From Limnochordia bacterium (GTDB taxonomy: Bacteria > Bacillota > Limnochordia > DTU080), in the NCBI GenBank assembly GCA_050951545.1, contig JBMNJG010000002.1, forward strand, positions 32,001-96,000: DNA of 64,000 nucleotides, written 5' to 3'. Below, in pieces: positions 17,698 to 60,476 of this stretch. Every line of letters starts with the position of its first letter. The first letter of the stretch is position 1. The position numbers and the translations under genes were made by a program. The notes beneath the pieces were generated by a model. The model was given only the letters and a program-made list of their open reading frames with translations, did not search any database and was not told the DNA's origin.

Positions 17698-19584
17698 CTA
17701 ACGCACCACCATCTGGCTTCCCGAGACAATGCGGCCCTGCACATAACAACCCACACCCATTCCTGGCCGACCGTTGAAGTACAGACGCTCCTCGTCAAGT
17801 TCTTCAATCTGAGACAATCGGCCATCGAGAAACATGCCTACCAGGGTTATGGCGCTGTCAATACGAGCAAGCAACGCGCCGTAGCGCATATCGAGTACAT
17901 CCCAGCCAAACGGCTTGTACAGGGCCAGCCACTGATCGCGATGGCAGTCTCGCAGGTTCTTGACGCGTGCGGCAAGCTCGGGCAACTCAGTATCTGCCAG
18001 ATGGCGTAGCGCCTCACGGTCGCCCGCCCGATAGGCTTGTGTGAGCCGCAGGCCCATCTCTGCTTTTGAGGATAATACGCGACTGACCCGAGACACGTAT
18101 TCGAAAAGCATGTTGTACTGCCCGTTTCGACCGCAGCCTGCCTGCAGCGTCTGGGTCAGTTGAGCATAGTGCTCCGACAAGGGTACGCCCTCTAGGTGTT
18201 TGTCAAAGAGGCCCATGAGGAGGTCTTGATACATCAGGAACTTACTGGCATTACCGCTGCCTGCGCCAGGGATCTCATCTAGATACTTGATGTTGATAAA
18301 GTCATCGTAACAAGCACCTGTACAGAACTCAAAGCGACGCTGCAATTTGTCTTGATCTAGGCCCTCGGCATAGCCGTGTTCTGCAAACAGCTGCATACCA
18401 AGCAGGGTGGCATAGATATGACACTCGCTGCCATAGCCGCCCCATGTGGTGGCGAATACTTCCCTGATGCCCTCCTGCTTGCAGGCATTGAGCGCAGCGT
18501 TGGTGGTCCGAAAACTGGCATTCCAGTTGACGGCAAAGCTAGTCCAGTTCCAGATGCCACCAGCGAAAATGGGATCTGAACCAAACTCGCGATGCCGCTT
18601 GATGTACTCACGATAGAACCCTTCATCATAGTGGTAGTAATCCCAGTAGACTAACTGCACACCAGCAGGCATGGCGGCAAGCACATGAGGAGGAATGGCG
18701 GCATCGAGATCATAATAACCGCCTGTTTTTGAGGCTGCCCGGAAGTACATATCACTCCAGATCATGGGCTTTAGGCCGTGCTTCTCCACAATCTGCAGCA
18801 CTCGGGCCAAATGCTCATTCATCAGATCAAACTTACTACGCAAGCCATGCTGCCGGAAATAGGCGCCCAGGCCCAAGCGCAAAGCCTCGTCCATGCCAAT
18901 GTGGATGCGCTTGCTACGAAAAGGCTCAGAGGCAGCTACGATTAGCCGCTCAATAAACTCGTAGACCTTCTCGTTTCCGACTAGCAATGTGGTATCGTCA
19001 TCTTTCATCGCGGCATAGGCTGGCCACTGTAACACAGTAGTAAGGTGAGCCAGTGTTTGCATGCAGGGAATCATCTCGATGCCAAAAAGGGCAGCGAAGT
19101 CGTCGCACTCTTTGAGTTCGTCAGCGGTATATCTGCCGCGCATGTAACCGAAGTAGGGTTCACCTTCCACCACGTAGTTGTCCTCGGTGTATAGCATGAA
19201 CATGTTGAGGCCCATCATGGCCATGCGCTTAAGGATGTTCTTGACAGTGGCCACCTGGGGTACAGCGTTGTTCTGAGAGACATCGAACATCGCTCCGTTG
19301 GTGGTAAACTGAGGCACTTCGGTGATCGATATCTCCTGACTACCAGCCCCTAGCTCCTCGAGTAGCAAACCAAGGCCACGGAAGAAATGCGCTCTCTCCG
19401 AGTAGCGAATCTCCGCCCGATCGCCTCGTTTGTTGACACAAATGGGCGAACCAGCGTGTTGCTCGACATGGACCAAGAGCCCATCAGGCGAAAGGTCGAA
19501 GTTGAAGTCGGGTGCAAGCAAGCGAACACCATCCATACAGTCTTGGATATCACCCTGCAGGTTTATGCGTTGGTAGGCATGCAT
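17698..19584 (-). CDS. GH20 beta-N-acetylhexosaminidase (GcnA/HexD-like, cytoplasmic)
   Basis: GAMFDVSQN, LYTED, PCMQTLAHL, catalytic HIGMDEA, IWSDMYF, VYWDYY; no signal peptide. Confidence 0.9.
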   Translation of the reverse strand: MHAYQRINLQGDIQDCMDGVRLLAPDFNFDLSPDGLLVHVEQHAGSPICVNKRGDRAEIRYSERAHFFRGLGLLLEELGAGSQEISITEVPQFTTNGAMFDVSQNNAVPQVATVKNILKRMAMMGLNMFMLYTEDNYVVEGEPYFGYMRGRYTADELKECDDFAALFGIEMIPCMQTLAHLTTVLQWPAYAAMKDDDTTLLVGNEKVYEFIERLIVAASEPFRSKRIHIGMDEALRLGLGAYFRQHGLRSKFDLMNEHLARVLQIVEKHGLKPMIWSDMYFRAASKTGGYYDLDAAIPPHVLAAMPAGVQLVYWDYYHYDEGFYREYIKRHREFGSDPIFAGGIWNWTSFAVNWNASFRTTNAALNACKQEGIREVFATTWGGYGSECHIYATLLGMQLFAEHGYAEGLDQDKLQRRFEFCTGACYDDFINIKYLDEIPGAGSGNASKFLMYQDLLMGLFDKHLEGVPLSEHYAQLTQTLQAGCGRNGQYNMLFEYVSRVSRVLSSKAEMGLRLTQAYRAGDREALRHLADTELPELAARVKNLRDCHRDQWLALYKPFGWDVLDMRYGALLARIDSAITLVGMFLDGRLSQIEELDEERLYFNGRPGMGVGCYVQGRIVSGSQMVVR

Positions 19585-19607
19585 CGAGCCCAGACCCCCC
19601 GTGAAAC

Positions 19608-21500
19608 TCATTGTCTGCTGACAGACGTAATGCGCTCTTGCCGAATGCAGGTCACGTTCAACCCGGATTGGCCATTGAAAGAGAGTCGCTCCTGTTCTAA
19701 CTCAGCGATACGGGACAGTCGACCATCCAGGTAGCGGCTAATCTGCTCGCTGGCGCTGTCGATGCGCGCTAGAAGAGCGCCATACCTCATGTCCATGATG
19801 TCCCAGCCAAATGCCTTGTACAGCATCAGCCACTGGTCGCGATGACAGGCCCGTAGATCCCGCACTCGTCGGGTGAGTTCCGACAACTCCGTATCCACTA
19901 AGCGCTGCAACTCTTGCCTGTGACCTGCTCGGTAGGCCCGAGTAATCCTGATACCCATGTCGGCCTTCAAGGCTAACACATGACTAACGCGGGAGAGATA
20001 CTCAAAGACCAGGCCATACTCTCCGTTGCGGTTGATCCCCTCTTGTAGCGTCTGAGTGAGCTCAGAGTAATGTTGGGCTAGCGGCAAGCCGACAATGTGG
20101 TAATCAAAAAGGCCTGTAAGGAGATCTTGCCACATCAGATATTTGCTGGGATTGCTGCGCTTCAAGTTGCCAGGTTCTGTGCCTGGCACTTCATCTAGAT
20201 AGGTGATGTTCACGAAATCCTCAAAGCAGCCCCCCGTACAGAACTCGAAACGGCGTTGTAGTTTCCCCATGGAGAGCTGGCGTGCGTAGCCATGCTCAGC
20301 ATAGAGCTGCATTCCTAGGAGCGTTGCATAGATGGTACACTCGGTGCCAAATCCGCCCCACATGGTGGTGAATACTTCCTTCAGACCTTCTTGCTTGCAG
20401 GCATTGAGTGCAGCGTTGGTGGTAGCCAACGTTTTGCCCCAATTGACAGTGAAGCTAATCCAGCTCCATACGCAGCCAGCAAACAATGGATCTGAGCCAA
20501 ACTGACGATGCCGCCTGATGTACTCACGGTAAGACGCCTCGTCGGTGTGGTTGTAATCCCAGTAGACCAGTTGCACACCTTGGGGCATGGCAGCGATCAC
20601 TTCCGCCGGAATGCTGGCGTTGAGATCATAGTAACTGCCCCAAGGTGAAGCCGCCCGGAAGTACATATCACTCCAGATCATGGGCTTTAGACCGTGTTTC
20701 TCCACAATCTGAAGCACTTCGGCCAAGTGCTCATTCATCAAGTCGAACTTGCTGCGCAGGCCTTGCTGTTGCAGAGTAGTACCCAATCCCAGCTTCCACG
20801 CTTCATCCATACCAATGTGGATACGCTTGCTGCGAAATGGGGCCGAAGCTGCCACAACCATGCGCTCGACGAATTCGTACACTTTGTCGCTGCCTACCAG
20901 AAGCGTGCTCTCATCTTCTCGCATGTCGGTATAAGGTGGCCATTTGAGCACGTTGGTGAGGTGAGCCAGCGTTTGCATGCAGGGAATCATCTCGATGCCA
21001 AACAGAGCAGCAAACTCGTCGCACTCTTTGAGTTCATCGAAGGTGTACTTGCTGCGGGCATAGCCGAAATACGGCTCGCCTTCAACGACATAGTTGTCTT
21101 CAGTGTAGAGCATGAACATATTGAGACCCATCACAGCCATACGCTTGAGGATGCTTTTCACCGTAGCGACACGGGGCACGGCGTTTCCTTGCGAAACATC
21201 GAACATGGCCCCGTTAGTAGCAAACTGTGGCTCTTCAGTAATGGATATCTCCTGGAACCCCGCCTGTAGTTGCTCAAGGAGCAACCCGAAAGCACGGAAA
21301 AAGTGCACCTTCTCTGCATAGCGAATGGCAGCCTGGTTGCCCTGCTTACTTACGACGATCGGGCTTCCATCGCGTTGCTCCACCTGTACACAGAGCCCGT
21401 CTGGGGCCAGCTCGAAGTAGTAGTCAGGAGCTAGATGCTGCAGGCCCTCCAAGCAGTCTTGGATATCACCTTGCAGGTTTAACCGACAGATTGGTTTCAT
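19608..21500 (-). CDS. GH20 beta-N-acetylhexosaminidase, tandem paralogue
   Basis: Same motifs (HIGMDEAW); GGAGG RBS before MKPICR. Confidence 0.9.
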   Translation of the reverse strand: MKPICRLNLQGDIQDCLEGLQHLAPDYYFELAPDGLCVQVEQRDGSPIVVSKQGNQAAIRYAEKVHFFRAFGLLLEQLQAGFQEISITEEPQFATNGAMFDVSQGNAVPRVATVKSILKRMAVMGLNMFMLYTEDNYVVEGEPYFGYARSKYTFDELKECDEFAALFGIEMIPCMQTLAHLTNVLKWPPYTDMREDESTLLVGSDKVYEFVERMVVAASAPFRSKRIHIGMDEAWKLGLGTTLQQQGLRSKFDLMNEHLAEVLQIVEKHGLKPMIWSDMYFRAASPWGSYYDLNASIPAEVIAAMPQGVQLVYWDYNHTDEASYREYIRRHRQFGSDPLFAGCVWSWISFTVNWGKTLATTNAALNACKQEGLKEVFTTMWGGFGTECTIYATLLGMQLYAEHGYARQLSMGKLQRRFEFCTGGCFEDFVNITYLDEVPGTEPGNLKRSNPSKYLMWQDLLTGLFDYHIVGLPLAQHYSELTQTLQEGINRNGEYGLVFEYLSRVSHVLALKADMGIRITRAYRAGHRQELQRLVDTELSELTRRVRDLRACHRDQWLMLYKAFGWDIMDMRYGALLARIDSASEQISRYLDGRLSRIAELEQERLSFNGQSGLNVTCIRQERITSVSRQ

Positions 21501-21593
21501 GGCTGGCAGACCTCCGTGGTTAACACTCATGTGACGCGAGATGCTTCTCCACGGAGAGCTGGGAATCCTATGGCAGCAAATCACAGGGACTGC

Positions 21594-21818
21594 AGATATC
21601 CCATCCCCTATGGCGCAGAAGGTCGTTAAGCAGGCCGTCATTCTGGCTCTGGTCTAGTTCCGGGTTCATGGAAACGAGGTTGTAGCGCACTGCCCGGCGA
21701 TCAAGGGCCAGGGGAACGAGTTGGTTAGCCAGTCCCCGGTTCGAGTGCGTTACTGCCGTTGAAACACAAGAGGATGGTCCACTTGCTCCGGGAACAGTTG
21801 ACCATCCTCACCACCACC
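21594..21818 (-). pseudogene. Internally deleted remnant of a clostripain-family paralogue
   Basis: Reads VVRMVNCSRSKWTILLCFNGSNALEP..stop, then QLVPLALDRRAVRYNLVSMNPELDQSQNDGLLNDLLRHRGWDI. These are the N- and C-termini of 23181-24410 with about 1 kb missing. Confidence 0.85.
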
Positions 21819-21837
21819 TAAGAGTCTTGTCGTGGCG

Positions 21838-22881
21838 TCATTGGCATTCTAACCACTTGATGCCTCGGCTACGACCGGGAACGGGAACAAAAACAGTGAT
21901 AAATGCAGACTCCCAGTAGTAGATCATCTGACTGCTATCCACGGCAGTGATGCTGAAAAGGTAGTCTCCCGGGGCTGTTCCCGAAGGCACCGTGATGGTG
22001 ATAGCAAATGGCGCATCCACTCCAGTTAGCCCACTATACGAGGATGGAACGCTGGTGAGCCAGGGTTCAAATCCGAAACTGGCCTCCAAGTGCAGATTAT
22101 CAATCGTCAGCTGGGTAAGGGCAGCCTTGATGGCGCCTACCACCTGATTAACGAAGTCTGCTGTGTTGAGTTGGAAGGCATGACCACCTGTAATGCCTGT
22201 CCAGTACCCCCAGTACTCTAGTGCCCCGCTCGACGCATGAGCTTCGATTAGTGTAATGCGGTTGCCTGCCATGGCAGCCAAGACCTGCTGCAGATCCAGA
22301 TCATCGGGGGTATCCTGCTTTTCATCTCGGCCCGGGTCACCCCCGGTCGACCATGGCGGATAGCCTTCGCGGCCTGGAACACCTTCGTTGAGATTGCAGT
22401 CGTGAGGAACACTATCGGCGAAATTGACCAGAATCCTTTTCGCAGAAGCACGCCAGCTGACGTTGGGATCGGCATAGCTCTCGTAGAATACGCGGGTGTA
22501 ACACTGGGGAGAATCCCCGCCGTTTCCCAGTGCGAGACCATTAATGGTGTTCGCCACCGCCTCTCTATCTGCTGTAACAGCTCGATCCACACGGTAGGGA
22601 TAGTCCCCGGCGCTCCCGTAGCATGCGCTGTACCCGCAATAGTCATCGTAGCAATGTGGGTAATCCATATAGGAAATAACACCATAGTTAATATCAATGC
22701 CCAAGGCATCAAGTTGGGCCATTAGTTCTGCAGCCTTGGACTTCGCCGTATCGATAACAGTCGTCATAGTACTAGCAAGGCCAAACGCAAAGACTACGTC
22801 GGCCATGGGCGAAAACAAAGGAATACCCACTACCCTATTTTCGCTGGTCGACATACCCGCCTGTAACGTAGCCTTTATCAT
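21838..22881 (-). CDS. vWA-domain protein copy B (degenerate MIDAS) with Ig-like C-terminal domain and SRGIKW tail
   Basis: Paralogue of 24421-25464; DVVFAFGLASTM in place of DVVFAFDLTGSM. Confidence 0.8.
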   Translation of the reverse strand: MIKATLQAGMSTSENRVVGIPLFSPMADVVFAFGLASTMTTVIDTAKSKAAELMAQLDALGIDINYGVISYMDYPHCYDDYCGYSACYGSAGDYPYRVDRAVTADREAVANTINGLALGNGGDSPQCYTRVFYESYADPNVSWRASAKRILVNFADSVPHDCNLNEGVPGREGYPPWSTGGDPGRDEKQDTPDDLDLQQVLAAMAGNRITLIEAHASSGALEYWGYWTGITGGHAFQLNTADFVNQVVGAIKAALTQLTIDNLHLEASFGFEPWLTSVPSSYSGLTGVDAPFAITITVPSGTAPGDYLFSITAVDSSQMIYYWESAFITVFVPVPGRSRGIKWLECQ

Positions 22882-23180
22882 AGGGCATACCTCTTTCTAC
22901 TAGCCTAGTGTACCGAAAAGCAGCTTCCCAAGTGGCGTTGGCACGCATCGCGTTCTTGCCAGTACATCCTACGCGCTGTGCGACAGACGTGAATGAGTAC
23001 GAAGGCCCAACCCCGCGATATTGATTGTCCAACGCGATGCCCAGTGATCACACAACTGCTGGGTACTGTGTCCGTCTGTTTGAGCAGGATTTGGGATCTG
23101 TGTAAGTCTCTGTGGAGCCCCCCACGCAAACCACGCTCCCATAGGTCTGTGGGCGAGTTCAGACCCATGCTGGTCGCATT

Positions 23181-24410
23181 CTATATATCCCATCCCTTAT
23201 GGCGCAGAAGTTCGTCAAGCAGGCTGTCAATCTGGCTCTCGTTCAGTGCCGGATTCATAGAAGCGAGATTGCTACGCACTACCCGGCGATCAAGGGCCAG
23301 GGGAAGGAGTTCGTGGTGAGCACTAGGTGCTGGGGGCGTGTATGTCGTGCCAGCCTTCCCCTGCAGCATCTCAAACCAGAGATTGGATTGGCCAAACGCC
23401 AGGCGGTGATAGAGCCTGACTTTGTCGGGGTCATCAAGAAGACTCACCGCCACAGTGATTGGCGCTGAGAGCTCGTCAGTAGCTTTGCAGCAGATAATCA
23501 GTGATGACAGACATTCCCGAAGCTCTGCAGCTACAGCGTACCACGGATCATCGCGGTGTGGGGTGTTCACCAGCCGCGACAATGGCGGCCCACTGCCCTG
23601 CCCACTATCTAGGTACATGGCGGCCAGATCACTGAAAAGCTGCTTGAGCGCGGGCGATCTGTGTCGGAGTCCAAACGGTAGGCAACCAGGTCTGCGGGAA
23701 ATGGCCTCGACAATCTGCCGGCAGGCATCCATCGGCCCATTCCCATATACGTTTTCCCTCATTACACGAATCAGTTGGGAGTAGGGCATCCCTCCTAGCG
23801 GTGCCTGGCCAGCATGAGTAATGACCGCTCTGGTGCAGCAACCCTCTCCGCCGATTTCATAGAGAACCTCAATGCAGTTACAGTAGCAGCTATCCAGAAC
23901 CAGTATGTCAATCTCCTTGCTCAGGCGCTGGCCAACCAGACGTAGACTAGCAGCCATCTCTGGGATCCCCAGGATATATGGCTTCTCCTGGCTGTAGTCC
24001 GTCATGATACCGACATACTGGTAGCCATGTCCGCTCAAGACCAGCATGTAGTGGTCAGCCGGATAAGCTTGCATACCCCAAGACAGGAAGTCGCAGAGTT
24101 GCCGTGGATCCGCCATATTGACCTTGTCGAGTTGCTGCACCAGTACTGGCTTTCCCCTTGCCAACTGATAGCGCCTTACTCCAAGCCACCTCGCAGCCTC
24201 GAGCGGAATACCATCGGATGGACGCATGAGTCTAGCCAGCCTCCGATCCTCCCTGCCTAACTGCAACACGACGCGGATATTAACGCCGGCATCAACTGAT
24301 GCTGCCAGTGCCTTCGCATTCCACATCTCCGGCTCGAGTTCGTTGTTGCCATTAAAGTACAAGAGGATGGTCCACTTGCTCTGGGAACAGTTGACCATCC
24401 TCAACACCAC
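23181..24410 (-). CDS. Clostripain-family (C11) cysteine peptidase with no signal peptide
   Basis: KWTILLYFNGNNELE, VNMADP, YPADHYMLVLSGHG (catalytic His-Gly), DILVLDSC (catalytic Cys), IEVLYE. Confidence 0.88.
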   Translation of the reverse strand: MVLRMVNCSQSKWTILLYFNGNNELEPEMWNAKALAASVDAGVNIRVVLQLGREDRRLARLMRPSDGIPLEAARWLGVRRYQLARGKPVLVQQLDKVNMADPRQLCDFLSWGMQAYPADHYMLVLSGHGYQYVGIMTDYSQEKPYILGIPEMAASLRLVGQRLSKEIDILVLDSCYCNCIEVLYEIGGEGCCTRAVITHAGQAPLGGMPYSQLIRVMRENVYGNGPMDACRQIVEAISRRPGCLPFGLRHRSPALKQLFSDLAAMYLDSGQGSGPPLSRLVNTPHRDDPWYAVAAELRECLSSLIICCKATDELSAPITVAVSLLDDPDKVRLYHRLAFGQSNLWFEMLQGKAGTTYTPPAPSAHHELLPLALDRRVVRSNLASMNPALNESQIDSLLDELLRHKGWDI

Positions 24411-24420
24411 CTTGGGGTTT

Positions 24421-25464
24421 CTACCACGTGATGCCTCGGCTACGACCGGGAACAGTAATGGTTACCAATTGCTCGCCGTAGCTCACTCCACTGCTATCCA
24501 CGGCAGTGATGGTGAAGCTGTAGACTCCCGGGGTGGTTCCCGGCGGCACCGTAATGGTGATAACAAACGGCACATCCAATCCAGTTGGCCCACTGTATGA
24601 GGGTGGAACCACACTGACTAGCCAGGATTCATATCCAGCACTCGCCTCCAAGTGCAGATCATCAACCGTCGGCTGTGTGAGAGCAGCTTGGATGGCGGCT
24701 ACCACCTGAGCAACGAAGTTGGCGGTGTCGAGTTGGAAGGTGTCACCACCTGTGATGCCTGTCCAATACTCCCAGTACTCCAGGGCAAAGTCTGACGCAT
24801 GGGCTTCGATTAGTATAACGCCGTTGGCTACCATGTCAGCCAAGACCTGCTGCAGATCCAGATCATCGGCGGTGTCCTGGAGTTCGTCTCGGCCCGGGTC
24901 ACCTCCGGTCGACCATGGCGGATCGCCTTCGTGGCCTGGAACACCTTCGTTCAGGCTGCAGTCGTGAGGAACGTTATCGGCGAAGTTGACCAGTATTCTC
25001 TTGGCACCGGGACGCCAGCTGACGTTGGGATCGGCATAGCTCTCGTAGAATATGCGGGTGTAATCCTGGGGGCTATCCTCGCCAAATCCCAGTACGAGAC
25101 CGTTAATGGTGTTCACCACTGCTGTTCTGTCTGCTGTAACAGCTTGATCCAGATTGTAGGCATAATCTCCCGCTGCTGCGTCACCGTAGCATGCGGTGTA
25201 CCCGCAGTAATCAGTGTAGCAATGTGGGTAATCCATATAGGAAATAACACCGTAGTTGATATCGATGCCAAGAGCATCCAGTTGGGTCATTAGTGCTTCG
25301 GCCTGGTTTTTGGCGGTATCGATAACATTCGTCATACTACCAGTAAGGTCAAACGCAAAGACCACGTCAGCCTGGGGCGGAAGCATGGGAACACCTACTA
25401 CCTTATCCTCGCTAATCGACATACCCGCCTGTAACGTAGCCATCAGTGTTGAGGGGGTTATCAT
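24421..25464 (-). CDS. vWA-domain protein copy A with Ig-like C-terminal domain and SRGITW tail
   Basis: DVVFAFDLTGSM MIDAS, GVISYMDY, WRPGAKRILVNFADNVPH; TITVPPGTTPGVYSFTITA Ig strand; no signal peptide. Confidence 0.85.
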   Translation of the reverse strand: MITPSTLMATLQAGMSISEDKVVGVPMLPPQADVVFAFDLTGSMTNVIDTAKNQAEALMTQLDALGIDINYGVISYMDYPHCYTDYCGYTACYGDAAAGDYAYNLDQAVTADRTAVVNTINGLVLGFGEDSPQDYTRIFYESYADPNVSWRPGAKRILVNFADNVPHDCSLNEGVPGHEGDPPWSTGGDPGRDELQDTADDLDLQQVLADMVANGVILIEAHASDFALEYWEYWTGITGGDTFQLDTANFVAQVVAAIQAALTQPTVDDLHLEASAGYESWLVSVVPPSYSGPTGLDVPFVITITVPPGTTPGVYSFTITAVDSSGVSYGEQLVTITVPGRSRGITW

Positions 25465-25680
25465 AGGGCATACCTCTTTCTATTGGTCCAGCATACCTAA
25501 CAACAGGTTCCCGAGTGGCACTGGCATGCATCGCGATCTTGCCGGTACATCCTACGCGCTGTGTGCCACAGGCGCATGAGTACGAAGGCTCAACTTTGCG
25601 ATATTGGTCCTTTGGTGGGATGCTACCCGGACCTGGGTAACGGCCCGCAGGAAAGCGTGGAACTAGCATACCTCTCAGCA

Positions 25681-25734
25681 AAGTGGCGGGGCCGGCGTGC
25701 ACGAAACAGCGCGTCGACCCTGTCATTTCAGGTC
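25681..25734 (+). repeat. Diverged copy of the 17594-17648 terminator segment
   Basis: AAGTGGCGGGGCCGGCGTGCACGAAACAGCGCGTCGACCCTGTCATTTCAGGTC versus AAATGGCAAGGGCCGATATGCAGGAGACAGCACGTCGGCCTTTTCATTTCTGGTC. Confidence 0.6.
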
Positions 25735-25840
25735 ACCCAATTATTTACCGTCCAATGCCAAATATCACTATACTATCATCAAGACCTTATTCCGGACAAG
25801 ATCCACCAATTGGTGTCTGACTAGACCACTGAGGAGGCAG

Positions 25841-27134
25841 ATGATGAACACAAACAAGACGATCTGCACTGCGGCTATAGCCTGCATGATGGTCATACTG
25901 TCGGCGCTGCCATGCATCTGGGCTGCGGAAACCACACTAGTTGTTGCCACTCGACACGCGCCAAGCGACCCCGATCTGTTGGCTCTCGCTGAAGCCTTCG
26001 AAAAGGGACACCCTAACGTGAAGATCGACTTTATCTGGGAAGCGTGCATGAGCGACCAAGTCACCCATCCTCATACAGCTAAGCTGATGACCATGGTAGC
26101 CGGAGGCATCCCACCTGATGTTTCCTACGTTGGGGGCCAGAACGTATCACAGTACGCGTTGCAGGGGCTCCTTCGGCCGCTTGATGAGTACATTCGCCGA
26201 TCCCAGCTACAACCTAGTGACTTCATTCCTCCCGCCTGGCGGCAGACACAGTGGAATGGCAAGACCTATGCGATGACCATCCAAGTGGATCCGAACTTCG
26301 CGCTAGTCTGGAACAAGCTCCTGTTTGGTGAAGCTGGTCTCGATACCGAGCGCGGTCCCGCCACGATTGCTGAGTACGAATCGTTCTTCCGCAAACTGAC
26401 CCGAACAGACTCAGGTGGTGTGACCTCTCACCTGGGTGCTGCACCGTGGGACTGCTACGGCAATTCGAACACCCTGTTTACCTGGGGTTGGGCTTTCGGC
26501 GGCCAGTTCTACGATGAGGCCACGAGAAAAGTAACCGCGGCACACCCACGCATCATCGAAAGCCTCGAGTGGATGCGTAGCTATCACCAGCGTTTTAACG
26601 GCTTCGCGATCGCCAACTTCCCCAACAATAGGCTGGCCATGCGCCCGGCTGTCTCAGCGAACTTCCGCACGTGGGTCACGCAACTTCCCTGACATCCCGC
26701 TCGGAATCGGACGCATGCCCTACAAAGAAGGCGTCGGCATCACCCACGCCGAATGGATTGGCGGTTGGGCCATTGGCATTTTGCCCCAAAGTACGGAGCC
26801 TGACGTGGCCTGGGAGTTTGTGCGCTATTTCACTGCTTCGGTGGAAGGCACAACCAACTATGCCCGCTCCTCTGGTTGGATCCCTGCGTACTTGCGCTCG
26901 CAGATCTTCCGTGAGTTCTCGCGAGACCCGGCTGTAGCAGTCTACCTGGATATCGCGCAATCGGCCACAAATATCCGGCCCCCGATGCCAGCGATTATTG
27001 ATTACTTCGAGGAGCTTGACATCTGCATGAAAGACGTGCTGGCTGGACAAATCCAGCCACCTGCTGCTCTACAACGGACGCAGGAGCGCGCACAGCGTCA
27101 TCTTGATGAGGCTCTGAGCTCTCTCGCCCACTGA
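25841..27134 (+). CDS. ABC sugar-binding protein split by a +1 frameshift at 26687-26692 (pseudogene, sequencing error or recoding)
   Basis: GAGGAGG RBS; N-terminal ORF ends CTT CCC TGA; the +1 frame continues PDIPLGIGRMPY...AWEFVRY, completing a normal SBP. Confidence 0.8.
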
Positions 27135-59798: not shown

Positions 59799-60476
59799 GT
59801 GTCCGAGGTGGTCTCTTTGTGGCAAGCGCTTACATCGCCTCTGGTTGCCGATCTTGAACTGAACCATCCTAACCGGGTACACATGGAGCACGAGTCAGCA
59901 GCCAAGACTCTGGCGCTATCCTTGAACGAGCATCTGGCGCTTGTCGCCACACCAGGCACTCCTCCCGTGGTGGTCTGCGTTGGCACAGATCGCTCAACGG
60001 GCGATTCACTGGGGCCTCTCATCGGCACTGCTCTACAAGAGCGCATGCTACCAGCCCCAGTCTATGGTACGCTCGAGGACCCCGTGCATGCCGCCAACCT
60101 AGCTGACGCCTTGGAGAACATCCAAGGCAACCAACCCGAGCAACCCGTTTTGGCCGTCGATGCCTGTTTGGGGCGAGCAGAGAACGTCGGATTTGTGTCT
60201 GTGAGACGAGGAGCTCTGCGCCCGGGAACCGGGGTGAACAAGCGATTGCCTGCTGTGGGGCACCTTCATGTGGTAGGTGTCGTTAACGTCGGCGGATTCA
60301 TGGAGTACCTCGTGCTGCAAAACACGCGGCTTAGTCTGGTCATACGCATGGCCAGTCTTATTGCTGAGGCGATCGAAGTCTGTCTGTGTGAGCTCTGGCT
60401 CTCACAGGCAACTGCATCTCTAAGCGAGGCGAAGCGGATCCCGCGCAGTCGGGTGGCACTGCCTCTTCGACAGTGA
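59799..60476 (+). CDS. yyaC: Spore protease YyaC
   Basis: VCVGTDRSTGDSLGPLIG, YGTLEDPVHAANL, AVDACLG, LQNTRLSLV. Confidence 0.93.
   Translation: MSEVVSLWQALTSPLVADLELNHPNRVHMEHESAAKTLALSLNEHLALVATPGTPPVVVCVGTDRSTGDSLGPLIGTALQERMLPAPVYGTLEDPVHAANLADALENIQGNQPEQPVLAVDACLGRAENVGFVSVRRGALRPGTGVNKRLPAVGHLHVVGVVNVGGFMEYLVLQNTRLSLVIRMASLIAEAIEVCLCELWLSQATASLSEAKRIPRSRVALPLRQ

Follow-up and report, generated by a model that had tools for sequence, protein, structure and literature searches.

The pairs of tag and enzyme nearest to the system described here are sortase/LPXTG, exosortase/PEP-CTERM, archaeosortase/PGF-CTERM, rhombosortase/GlyGly-CTERM and myxosortase/MYXO-CTERM. In these systems, a short C-terminal motif is common to unrelated surface-type proteins that stand in a many-to-one relation to a dedicated enzyme, and the available text of the relevant reports describes this enzyme as often encoded next door (PMC3237569, PMC1569441, 10.1101/2023.06.07.544157). 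Their signals are tripartite (motif, transmembrane helix and basic cluster), reside on proteins exported through Sec and are cleaved extracytoplasmically by membrane enzymes. The present analysis concerns a stretch of 64,000 nt (the window) from contig JBMNJG010000002.1 of Limnochordia bacterium GCA_050951545.1, in which a locus at approximately 21595-25605 encodes proteins ending in an Arg-Gly-Ile (RGI) tail beside a cysteine peptidase of family C11, the clostripain family. By analogy, this tail and this peptidase appear to follow a sortase-like logic, in which a C-terminal tag is served by a dedicated protease; proteins carrying the tag are called cargo here.

All genes of the locus lie on the minus strand, in the order leader, vWA-A, C11 gene, second leader, vWA-B and C11 remnant. 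The 347-residue protein vWA-A (24421..25464) is a signal-less integrin-beta-like head, as judged from its open reading frame (ORF), its AlphaFold2 (AF2) model, and fold and profile matches. It terminates in ...TVPGRSRGITW; the proposed tag, VPGRSRGITW (24424..24453), lies at the very C-terminus, beyond the conserved module. The C11 gene (23181..24410, PF03415) follows and also encodes no signal peptide. The paralog vWA-B (21838..22881, also 347 residues and 73% identical to vWA-A) terminates in ...VPGRSRGIKWLECQ, where VPGRSRGIKW (21853..21882) precedes four extra residues, LECQ. Gene layout and sequences agree with the initial annotation of this DNA, which had described two signal-less vWA proteins with immunoglobulin (Ig)-like parts, each followed by a C11 gene or its remnant and each carrying VPGRSRGI(T/K)W at or within four residues of the C-terminus.

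The RGI system differs from the sortase-like pairs in its cargo, its tail and its enzyme. An N-terminal hydrophobic segment is found in none of 40 cargo proteins, versus 89 of 120 vWA homologs, and neither vWA-A nor vWA-B has one. Only 3-15 residues follow the Arg-Gly pair, with no hydrophobic helix among them, and the enzyme is a soluble C11 peptidase of clan CD. Because both the signal peptide and the transmembrane segment are lacking, the tail and C11 do not belong to any of the named sortase-like systems.

Several other clan CD enzymes share features with this peptidase. Fragipain and related C11 enzymes of Bacteroides belong to the same fold family and process specific proteins of their own bacterium (PMC8406203); however, these enzymes act on exported substrates and are exported themselves, they remove a prodomain at the N-terminus, and the excerpts available from that source describe no common C-terminal tag. 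The sporulation-specific YabG is a clan CD cysteine protease that works in the mother-cell cytoplasm and processes outer-layer proteins of the spore (PMC10681294, PMC12445089), but it belongs to another family and to the universal sporulation gene set, whereas the C11 subfamily is rare (4 of 399 Clostridia genomes and 3 of 112 genomes of the class of the Dehalobacter genome G064); the accessible parts of the two papers describe neither a common C-terminal tag nor adjacency to substrates. The clan CD transpeptidases, comprising plant asparaginyl endopeptidase (AEP) ligases, glycosylphosphatidylinositol (GPI) transamidase and PorU of the type IX secretion system, have a fold related to that of C11. 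They recognize a short C-terminal signal with small or hydrophobic residues at P1'-P2' and can transfer the acyl group. These transpeptidases differ from C11 in their P1 residue (Asn/Asp or others), in their families (C13/C25) and in acting in extracytoplasmic compartments. Ligase activity is, to our knowledge, not known for any C11 enzyme. AEP ligases read a short C-terminal signal and, according to the available text, can transfer the acyl group rather than hydrolyse (PMC8209628). Searches of the open-access literature (subscription journals being outside the scope) found no description of the C11 subfamily, the tail or their pairing. NCBIfam (release 20.0) contains no model for either at E up to 1, and the ESM Atlas returned only generic 'clostripain-related' clusters for this C11. 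A processing or sorting system formed by this tag and C11 is apparently undescribed.

The evidence that carries this proposal comes from other genomes. A scan of one genome per species identified 46 other loci with this C11 subfamily, at which the genes adjoining C11 end in, for example, ...LRGISLW, ...QRGIPLW, ...KRGIKF, ...VRGISFF.. and ...PTRGIIL. A loose tail pattern, scored within the last 25 residues of neighboring genes, occurs in 19 of 46 genes at position -1 from C11 and in 6 of 45 at position +1, as against 9 of 165 at positions +-2 and +-3 together and 8 of 408 at a distance of four or more genes, most of these eight looking real. After inspection of the available flank, a tail-bearing ORF lies near C11 in 37 of the 46 loci; in one of them (L044) it is the peptidase itself. 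Two short ORFs that match the loose pattern (L028:5450-5644 and L043:9277-9492) were left out of the tail set as doubtful. A test free of any preset motif, in which every 2-3-mer within the final 20 residues was counted in the +-1 neighbors and in genes at least four away, returned RGI as the most enriched (18/91 versus 8/408, p 5e-9), while KGI was present in none of the 91 neighboring C-termini. Besides the 46 loci, a more distant C11 in genome G960 has a tailed small protein 1.5 kb away. Carriers that can be cultivated include Clostridium drakei, C. sulfidigenes, Pelosinus baikalensis and Vallitalea maricola. The four matches in the Clostridia survey add no independent sample, because the three new ones are loci already among the 46. 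Thus, the tail is conserved beside C11 well beyond the window, the point on which the initial annotation had staked its proposal. The core of that proposal, in which C11 is the dedicated partner of a C-terminal ...RGI.. tail, stands, and corrections are needed to its tie to vWA proteins, its motif and its leader element.

The motif had been given as SRGIxW. From 42 non-redundant tails, it is better described as P-x-R-G-[I/L]-x-[F/L/I/W], with another 3-15 residues before the protein ends: Pro is found in 25 of the 42, then Ser, Thr or Val, then Arg, Gly, Ile (33 of the 42), any residue and one of Phe, Leu, Ile or Trp. The strict form of the tail is borne by 34 of 41 cargo proteins and by 3 of the 3701 ORFs of the genome that contains the window, and two of these three are the vWA proteins beside that genome's only C11 gene of this type. 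Another protein of the same genome (C5:256539-258206), ending in RVRGLKFFL, was judged a chance match, as it does not fit the strict motif and is membrane-anchored.

The vWA module is not the defining cargo. It is absent from all 46 other C11 loci (within 8 kb), from five C11-bearing genomes searched in full and from 60 relatives, and the tag is accordingly not tied to vWA proteins. Only 2 of 400 genomes of the phylum contain the module, and a metagenome scan with vWA-A gave five loci, none with a C11 match. Tagged cargo spans at least ten unrelated Pfam families, with domains that include ice-binding-like, DUF11, FG-GAP, RCC1, BNR, lactonase-type propellers, discoidin, DUF6923 and PMP repeats, together with small unnamed Cys-rich proteins. 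All of these domain types are characteristic of proteins outside the cell.

The tail is present in 36 of the 120 nearest ice-binding homologs. Of these tailed proteins, 35 lack a hydrophobic N-terminus and 1 has one, compared with 30 and 54, respectively, of the untailed proteins. The tail and the hydrophobic N-terminus are therefore almost mutually exclusive in this family, and the sequences suggest that the tail is an alternative to the signal peptide. A likeness to the sortase-like systems is seen within the single genome G064, in which a signal-less ice-binding paralog ending in RGISLW adjoins the C11 gene and another carries a signal peptide and an LPKTS-type anchor. Across the 112 genomes of its class, 1 of 26 ice-binding ORFs is tailed, in the only genome with a full-length member of the C11 subfamily.

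Some cargo and cargo-like proteins have further peculiarities. A small, signal-less, Cys-rich cargo family of 165-190 residues, with CGPxC shortly before the tag and no Pfam or NCBIfam match, is a recurrent cargo. A second unnamed family (about 175 residues, beginning MGFC...) is encoded downstream of C11 in L010, L036 and L038. Between them, these two families were noted at L035, L042, L043, L045, L010, L014, L036, L038 and L104. Many ice-binding homologs in the series P0314-P0398, mostly from Actinomycetota, bear a signal peptide and end exactly in ...P-x-F-T-G or ...V-T-G, an unusual terminus that may be another sorting or processing mark. In a metagenome-assembled genome of Desulfotomaculaceae, a collagen-like protein of G-x-y repeats (L019:8523-9902) is encoded directly downstream of C11; this architecture is typical of exosporium nap proteins.

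The peptidase itself keeps its catalytic and S1 residues. It scores 59.1 bits against PF03415 (cut-off 25.8), which places it in the C11 family; the NCBIfam clostripain equivalog is not reached (18.5 bits versus 550). Its catalytic dyad H128/C175 and D173 (numbered on the 409-residue ORF) are invariant among 26 sequences of the subfamily. In PmC11, the dyad is His133/Cys179 and Asp177 is proposed as the S1 residue for basic substrates, aligned with the specificity residue of the Arg-specific clostripain, Asp229 (PMC4850288). D173, two residues before the catalytic Cys, is the equivalent of these aspartates. The C11 model (predicted local distance difference test (pLDDT) 87.4) shows the clan CD alpha/beta fold with a C-terminal domain and has clostripain 9cip as its best fold match (E 2.5e-14, TM 0.63); six further C11 chains match at E below 1e-11, and legumain, AEP ligases and GPI transamidase are also among the fold matches. 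None of 25 peptidases of the subfamily has an N-terminal hydrophobic segment.

The likely start of the C11 gene is the ATG at 24398, which lies 22 nt past the vWA-A stop and behind an AAGGTGG ribosome-binding site, and at which an ESM Atlas entry and an NCBI cluster member both start. Between 23646 and 23699, the window carries three extra single bases that garble approximately residues 238-256, where comparison with the 92%-identical P0121 reveals three frame switches. Contigs from all four public runs lack one base at each of these three places; thus, the stretch is most likely an assembly error and the real gene intact. Indel errors possibly occur elsewhere in the window assembly too. The C-terminus of the peptidase has its own conserved element, Y-[K/R]-x-W, a few residues from the end, in which W407 is nearly invariant (alignment A1). 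In some members the element reads RGW or KGW, faintly like the tag, and it might act as a pseudo-substrate or contribute to the S' site. In Brevibacillus, a 653-residue C11 peptidase (L044:7860-9821) carries the tag itself (...PPPPRGVIL), so the enzyme may be its own substrate or travel with the cargo.

A C-terminal tag, its pairing with the C11 subfamily, the lack of signal peptides and intact catalytic and S1 residues are thus observed. Taken together with the specificity of related enzymes, they make it reasonably probable that C11 is the dedicated cytoplasmic processing enzyme of a C-terminal tag on signal-less surface-type proteins, cutting between Arg and Gly. In this mechanism, the soluble peptidase would bind the disordered tail of the cargo, the invariant Arg would enter the acidic S1 pocket (Asp173), and cleavage of the Arg-Gly bond would remove the hydrophobic end. 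The cut would mature the cargo or, less likely, transfer it to an acceptor. C11 and cargo would probably act in the mother cell during sporulation, in which case the cargo would end on the outer layers of the spore. An Arg that is invariant and never Lys, followed by Gly on a disordered tail, fits a cut at this bond.

Structure prediction is consistent with a tail that is free to bind. The AF2 model of vWA-A has a pLDDT of 95.9, yet the fold stops at residue 338 and the last 10-residue block has a pLDDT of 65; matches to the vWA family likewise end at query residues 338-341, just short of the tail. The tail is thus predicted to lie beyond the folded module, in a part of low model confidence. 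The initial annotation had recommended predicting the peptidase in complex with the tail. With C11 and the last 93 residues of vWA-A (255-347), this prediction scored 0.60, and the best of three controls 0.02; contact agreement between runs was at least 71% and partner pLDDT at least 72, with no interface given. Among solved complexes, 116 of 157 reach the mark used, as do 2 of 215 mismatched pairs; at scores of 0.60 or under, only 18 of those 157 and both mismatched pairs pass. The prediction thus lends weak support to binding.

A more ambitious version, which we regard as doubtful, makes C11 a spore analogue of sortase: in the mother cell, an acyl-enzyme would form on the tag Arg, and signal-less adhesin-like proteins (integrin-beta-like, integrin-alpha-like FG-GAP, ice-binding-like and lectin-like) would be transferred covalently to the coat, exosporium or appendages.

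Within the window, the whole unit is a tandem duplication, 76% identical in DNA. The leader of vWA-A (25465..25605) lies inside the duplicated unit, similarity to the second leader beginning near 25605; the leader of vWA-B (22882..23030), recognized by comparison with the first, is the second copy. The second C11 gene survives as an internally deleted remnant (21595..21814), of which residues 2-28 (21734-21814) and 363-409 (21595-21735) remain, matching at E 3.4e-7 and 2.2e-13, and the middle is gone. The LECQ extension of vWA-B results from one T inserted in the former stop codon, and the B-like relative P0002 terminates in ...RSRGIKW. Both vWA copies, both tails and the C11 remnant are reproduced in contigs of four public runs from four studies; among the 24 runs listed for this DNA, none is an RNA run. 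The initial annotation had singled out 25 bp of identity at the tails. This run (24429-24453) exists and lies within the least conserved 60-nt stretch of the duplication, but it is only the fifth longest of the duplication's identical runs (41, 36, 33, 26 and 25). It is therefore not exceptional by itself, and the window taken alone does not prove a selected tail.

The host genome holds no copy of vWA or of this C11 gene beyond those at the locus. None of the 60 relatives has the vWA module and the C11 subfamily occurs in two of them, both matches being weak or partial; thus, the cassette was probably acquired. Two tandem genes of the GH20 (beta-N-acetylhexosaminidase) type lie directly downstream (17698-21641). 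Since the longest ORF of the first reaches back into the C11 remnant, a later Met (MKPICRLNLQGDI...) is probably the true start of that gene.

Pfam named the peptidase alone among the locus proteins, and a cluster look-up returned no names for proteins of the host. In a fold search with vWA-A, the top 50 PDB matches are all integrin beta chains (E about 1e-18), and positions 24-348 of the vWA family profile match residues 79-422 of integrin beta-3, its betaI and hybrid domains (E 2e-11). By these model and profile matches, vWA-A is an integrin-beta-like head made of hybrid-domain strands, a betaI/vWA domain and an Ig-like part. The MIDAS-type metal-ion site motif (D-x-S/T-x-S), of which D39, T41 and S43 are near-invariant across the family, is kept in vWA-A as DLTGS and replaced in vWA-B by GLAST, and vWA-B is probably decaying. 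The Cys/Tyr-rich and acidic loops pointed out by the initial annotation are present in both copies. The Tyr, Gly, Pro and Asp of these loops do not vary within the wider family and the loop Cys are lineage-specific; by alignment, the Tyr-rich and acidic loops are family features.

The family is large, with 412 representative clusters at E below 1e-30, and consists mostly of surface proteins from archaea or bacteria that carry a signal peptide and additional domains toward the C-terminus. The module as a whole, with betaI inserted in the hybrid domain, is homologous to the headpiece of integrin beta and is widespread among prokaryotes, both archaea and bacteria. Homologs with signal peptides (among relatives P0004-P0278) often bear PEF-CTERM-like or other anchors. 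Two other minimal signal-less members, P0040 and P0169, show that other lineages carry variants of the tail, ...VPCRGCQLIYLD and ...PSTRGFHPASLRDATA.

The link to spores is circumstantial. Endospore-forming lineages of Bacillota, as given in the source records, account for 45 of the 46 C11 loci. The host genome encodes SpoIVA and SpoIIR, and yyaC (DUF1256), which the initial annotation had mentioned, is indeed in the window at about 59877-60368. DUF11 domains, found among the cargo, belong to a clostridial spore-appendage anchor described in the available part of a preprint (bioRxiv 10.1101/2025.02.11.637640). Of 34 cargo genes, 12 have a sigmaK-type -10 box upstream, compared with 27 of 417 other genes at the same loci (p 4.5e-6, overstated because the cargo genes include kin). 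The SigE/SigK-like element (TCAT-N19) that had been proposed for the window leaders was rejected: it matches no consensus there and its conservation is part of the duplication, the two leaders being 77-83% identical, as similar as the rest of the unit. Scans of the leaders for sigma-70 promoters and terminators gave no more hits than shuffled sequences. An Rfam scan of 21400-26000 at E up to 1 returned only a chance-level snoRNA match (E 0.42), so the leaders contain no riboswitch.

Several points weigh against a dedicated processing role for C11. No tail is seen at nine of the 46 loci: at two, the ortholog of a tailed cargo gene carries a frameshift, a third runs into the end of its contig, and the other six simply lack one. 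The p-values are overstated, because many loci are related to one another (L006-L009, L030/L031, L032/L033, L046/L047, and four paralogs in L040). The Arg, the Gly and the residue class at +4 were imposed by the pattern with which the tails were collected, RGI having been recovered without it in the k-mer test. The cut site is one we infer, by analogy, from the specificity of the C11 family, and the complex prediction for C11 and vWA-A is a weak pass. No sigmaK -10 box (CATA...TA) occurs in either window leader, even at a tolerance of one mismatch, and C11 genes show no enrichment of the box upstream (5 of 36). With the metal-site motif of vWA-B lost and the second peptidase copy deleted, the local system may be decaying. 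Finally, no third conserved gene (transporter, acceptor or ligase) was found among 87 neighboring proteins, which leaves a sorting step with no visible destination machinery.

This lack of an acceptor would equally suit an explanation in which the tail is an uncleaved docking hook, a hydrophobic strand inserted into a spore partner or another subunit, with C11 co-encoded for another reason, such as trimming other components of those assemblies. The alternating hydrophobic residues of the tail are beta-strand-like, and N-terminal hook motifs dock the subunits of endospore appendages, according to the accessible part of one report (10.1101/2025.02.11.637640). However, an invariant Arg for which Lys never substitutes fits the clostripain-type S1 pocket, itself invariant, and a variable stretch of 3-15 residues after Arg-Gly would be odd for a fixed docking strand; a docking hook is thus unlikely, if still the strongest competitor outside proteolytic processing. 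C-terminal hydrophobic tails also serve as degrons in bacteria, and C11 might destroy or limit the cargo in the cytoplasm until the right time, which would agree with the absence of signal peptides from both peptidase and cargo. Such a degradation or quality-control tag is quite improbable, because a single Arg-Gly site at the extreme end would lead to clipping rather than degradation, and a tight one-to-one pairing over diverse cargo families is what maturation or sorting systems typically show, unlike general proteolysis.

Short C-terminal pieces of precursor proteins act as signals in Bacillota, the Phr-type peptides being an example, and the released peptide (G-I-x-hydrophobic...) could likewise be the product, with the large protein as its carrier. 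Its length varies from 4 to 16 residues and it is poorly conserved past G-I-x-hydrophobic, the carriers are large folded domains of many families, and no receptor or exporter is conserved near C11, all of which render a peptide product very improbable. The rank of the 25-bp run within the duplication would by itself favor coincidence, that is, a shared tail left by recent duplication beside an unrelated peptidase. This explanation is already contradicted by the comparative data, since unrelated proteins bear the same tail beside C11 in 37 of 46 other loci, against one spurious ORF among 3699 in the host, and it has almost nothing left in its favor. Cleavage of the tag by C11 remains the preferred reading.

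In the literature searched, C-terminal sorting tags act on exported proteins at the membrane. If the proposed role of C11 is correct, a tag read by a soluble caspase-like peptidase on non-Sec proteins would be a new route for protein addressing, and would explain why extracellular-type domains (integrin-like heads, lectins, beta-propellers and ice-binding folds) occur without signal peptides in some spore formers. The tail motif would also allow candidate spore-surface proteins to be picked out by a simple rule from the sequences of uncultured Clostridia, Negativicutes and Peptococcia. Should C11 act as a sortase analogue, endospore formers would have a means of programmable spore-surface decoration without secretion. 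Should it ligate, C11 would be a new peptide ligase specific for Arg that recognizes a tail of five residues, and would interest practical users of sortase and butelase.

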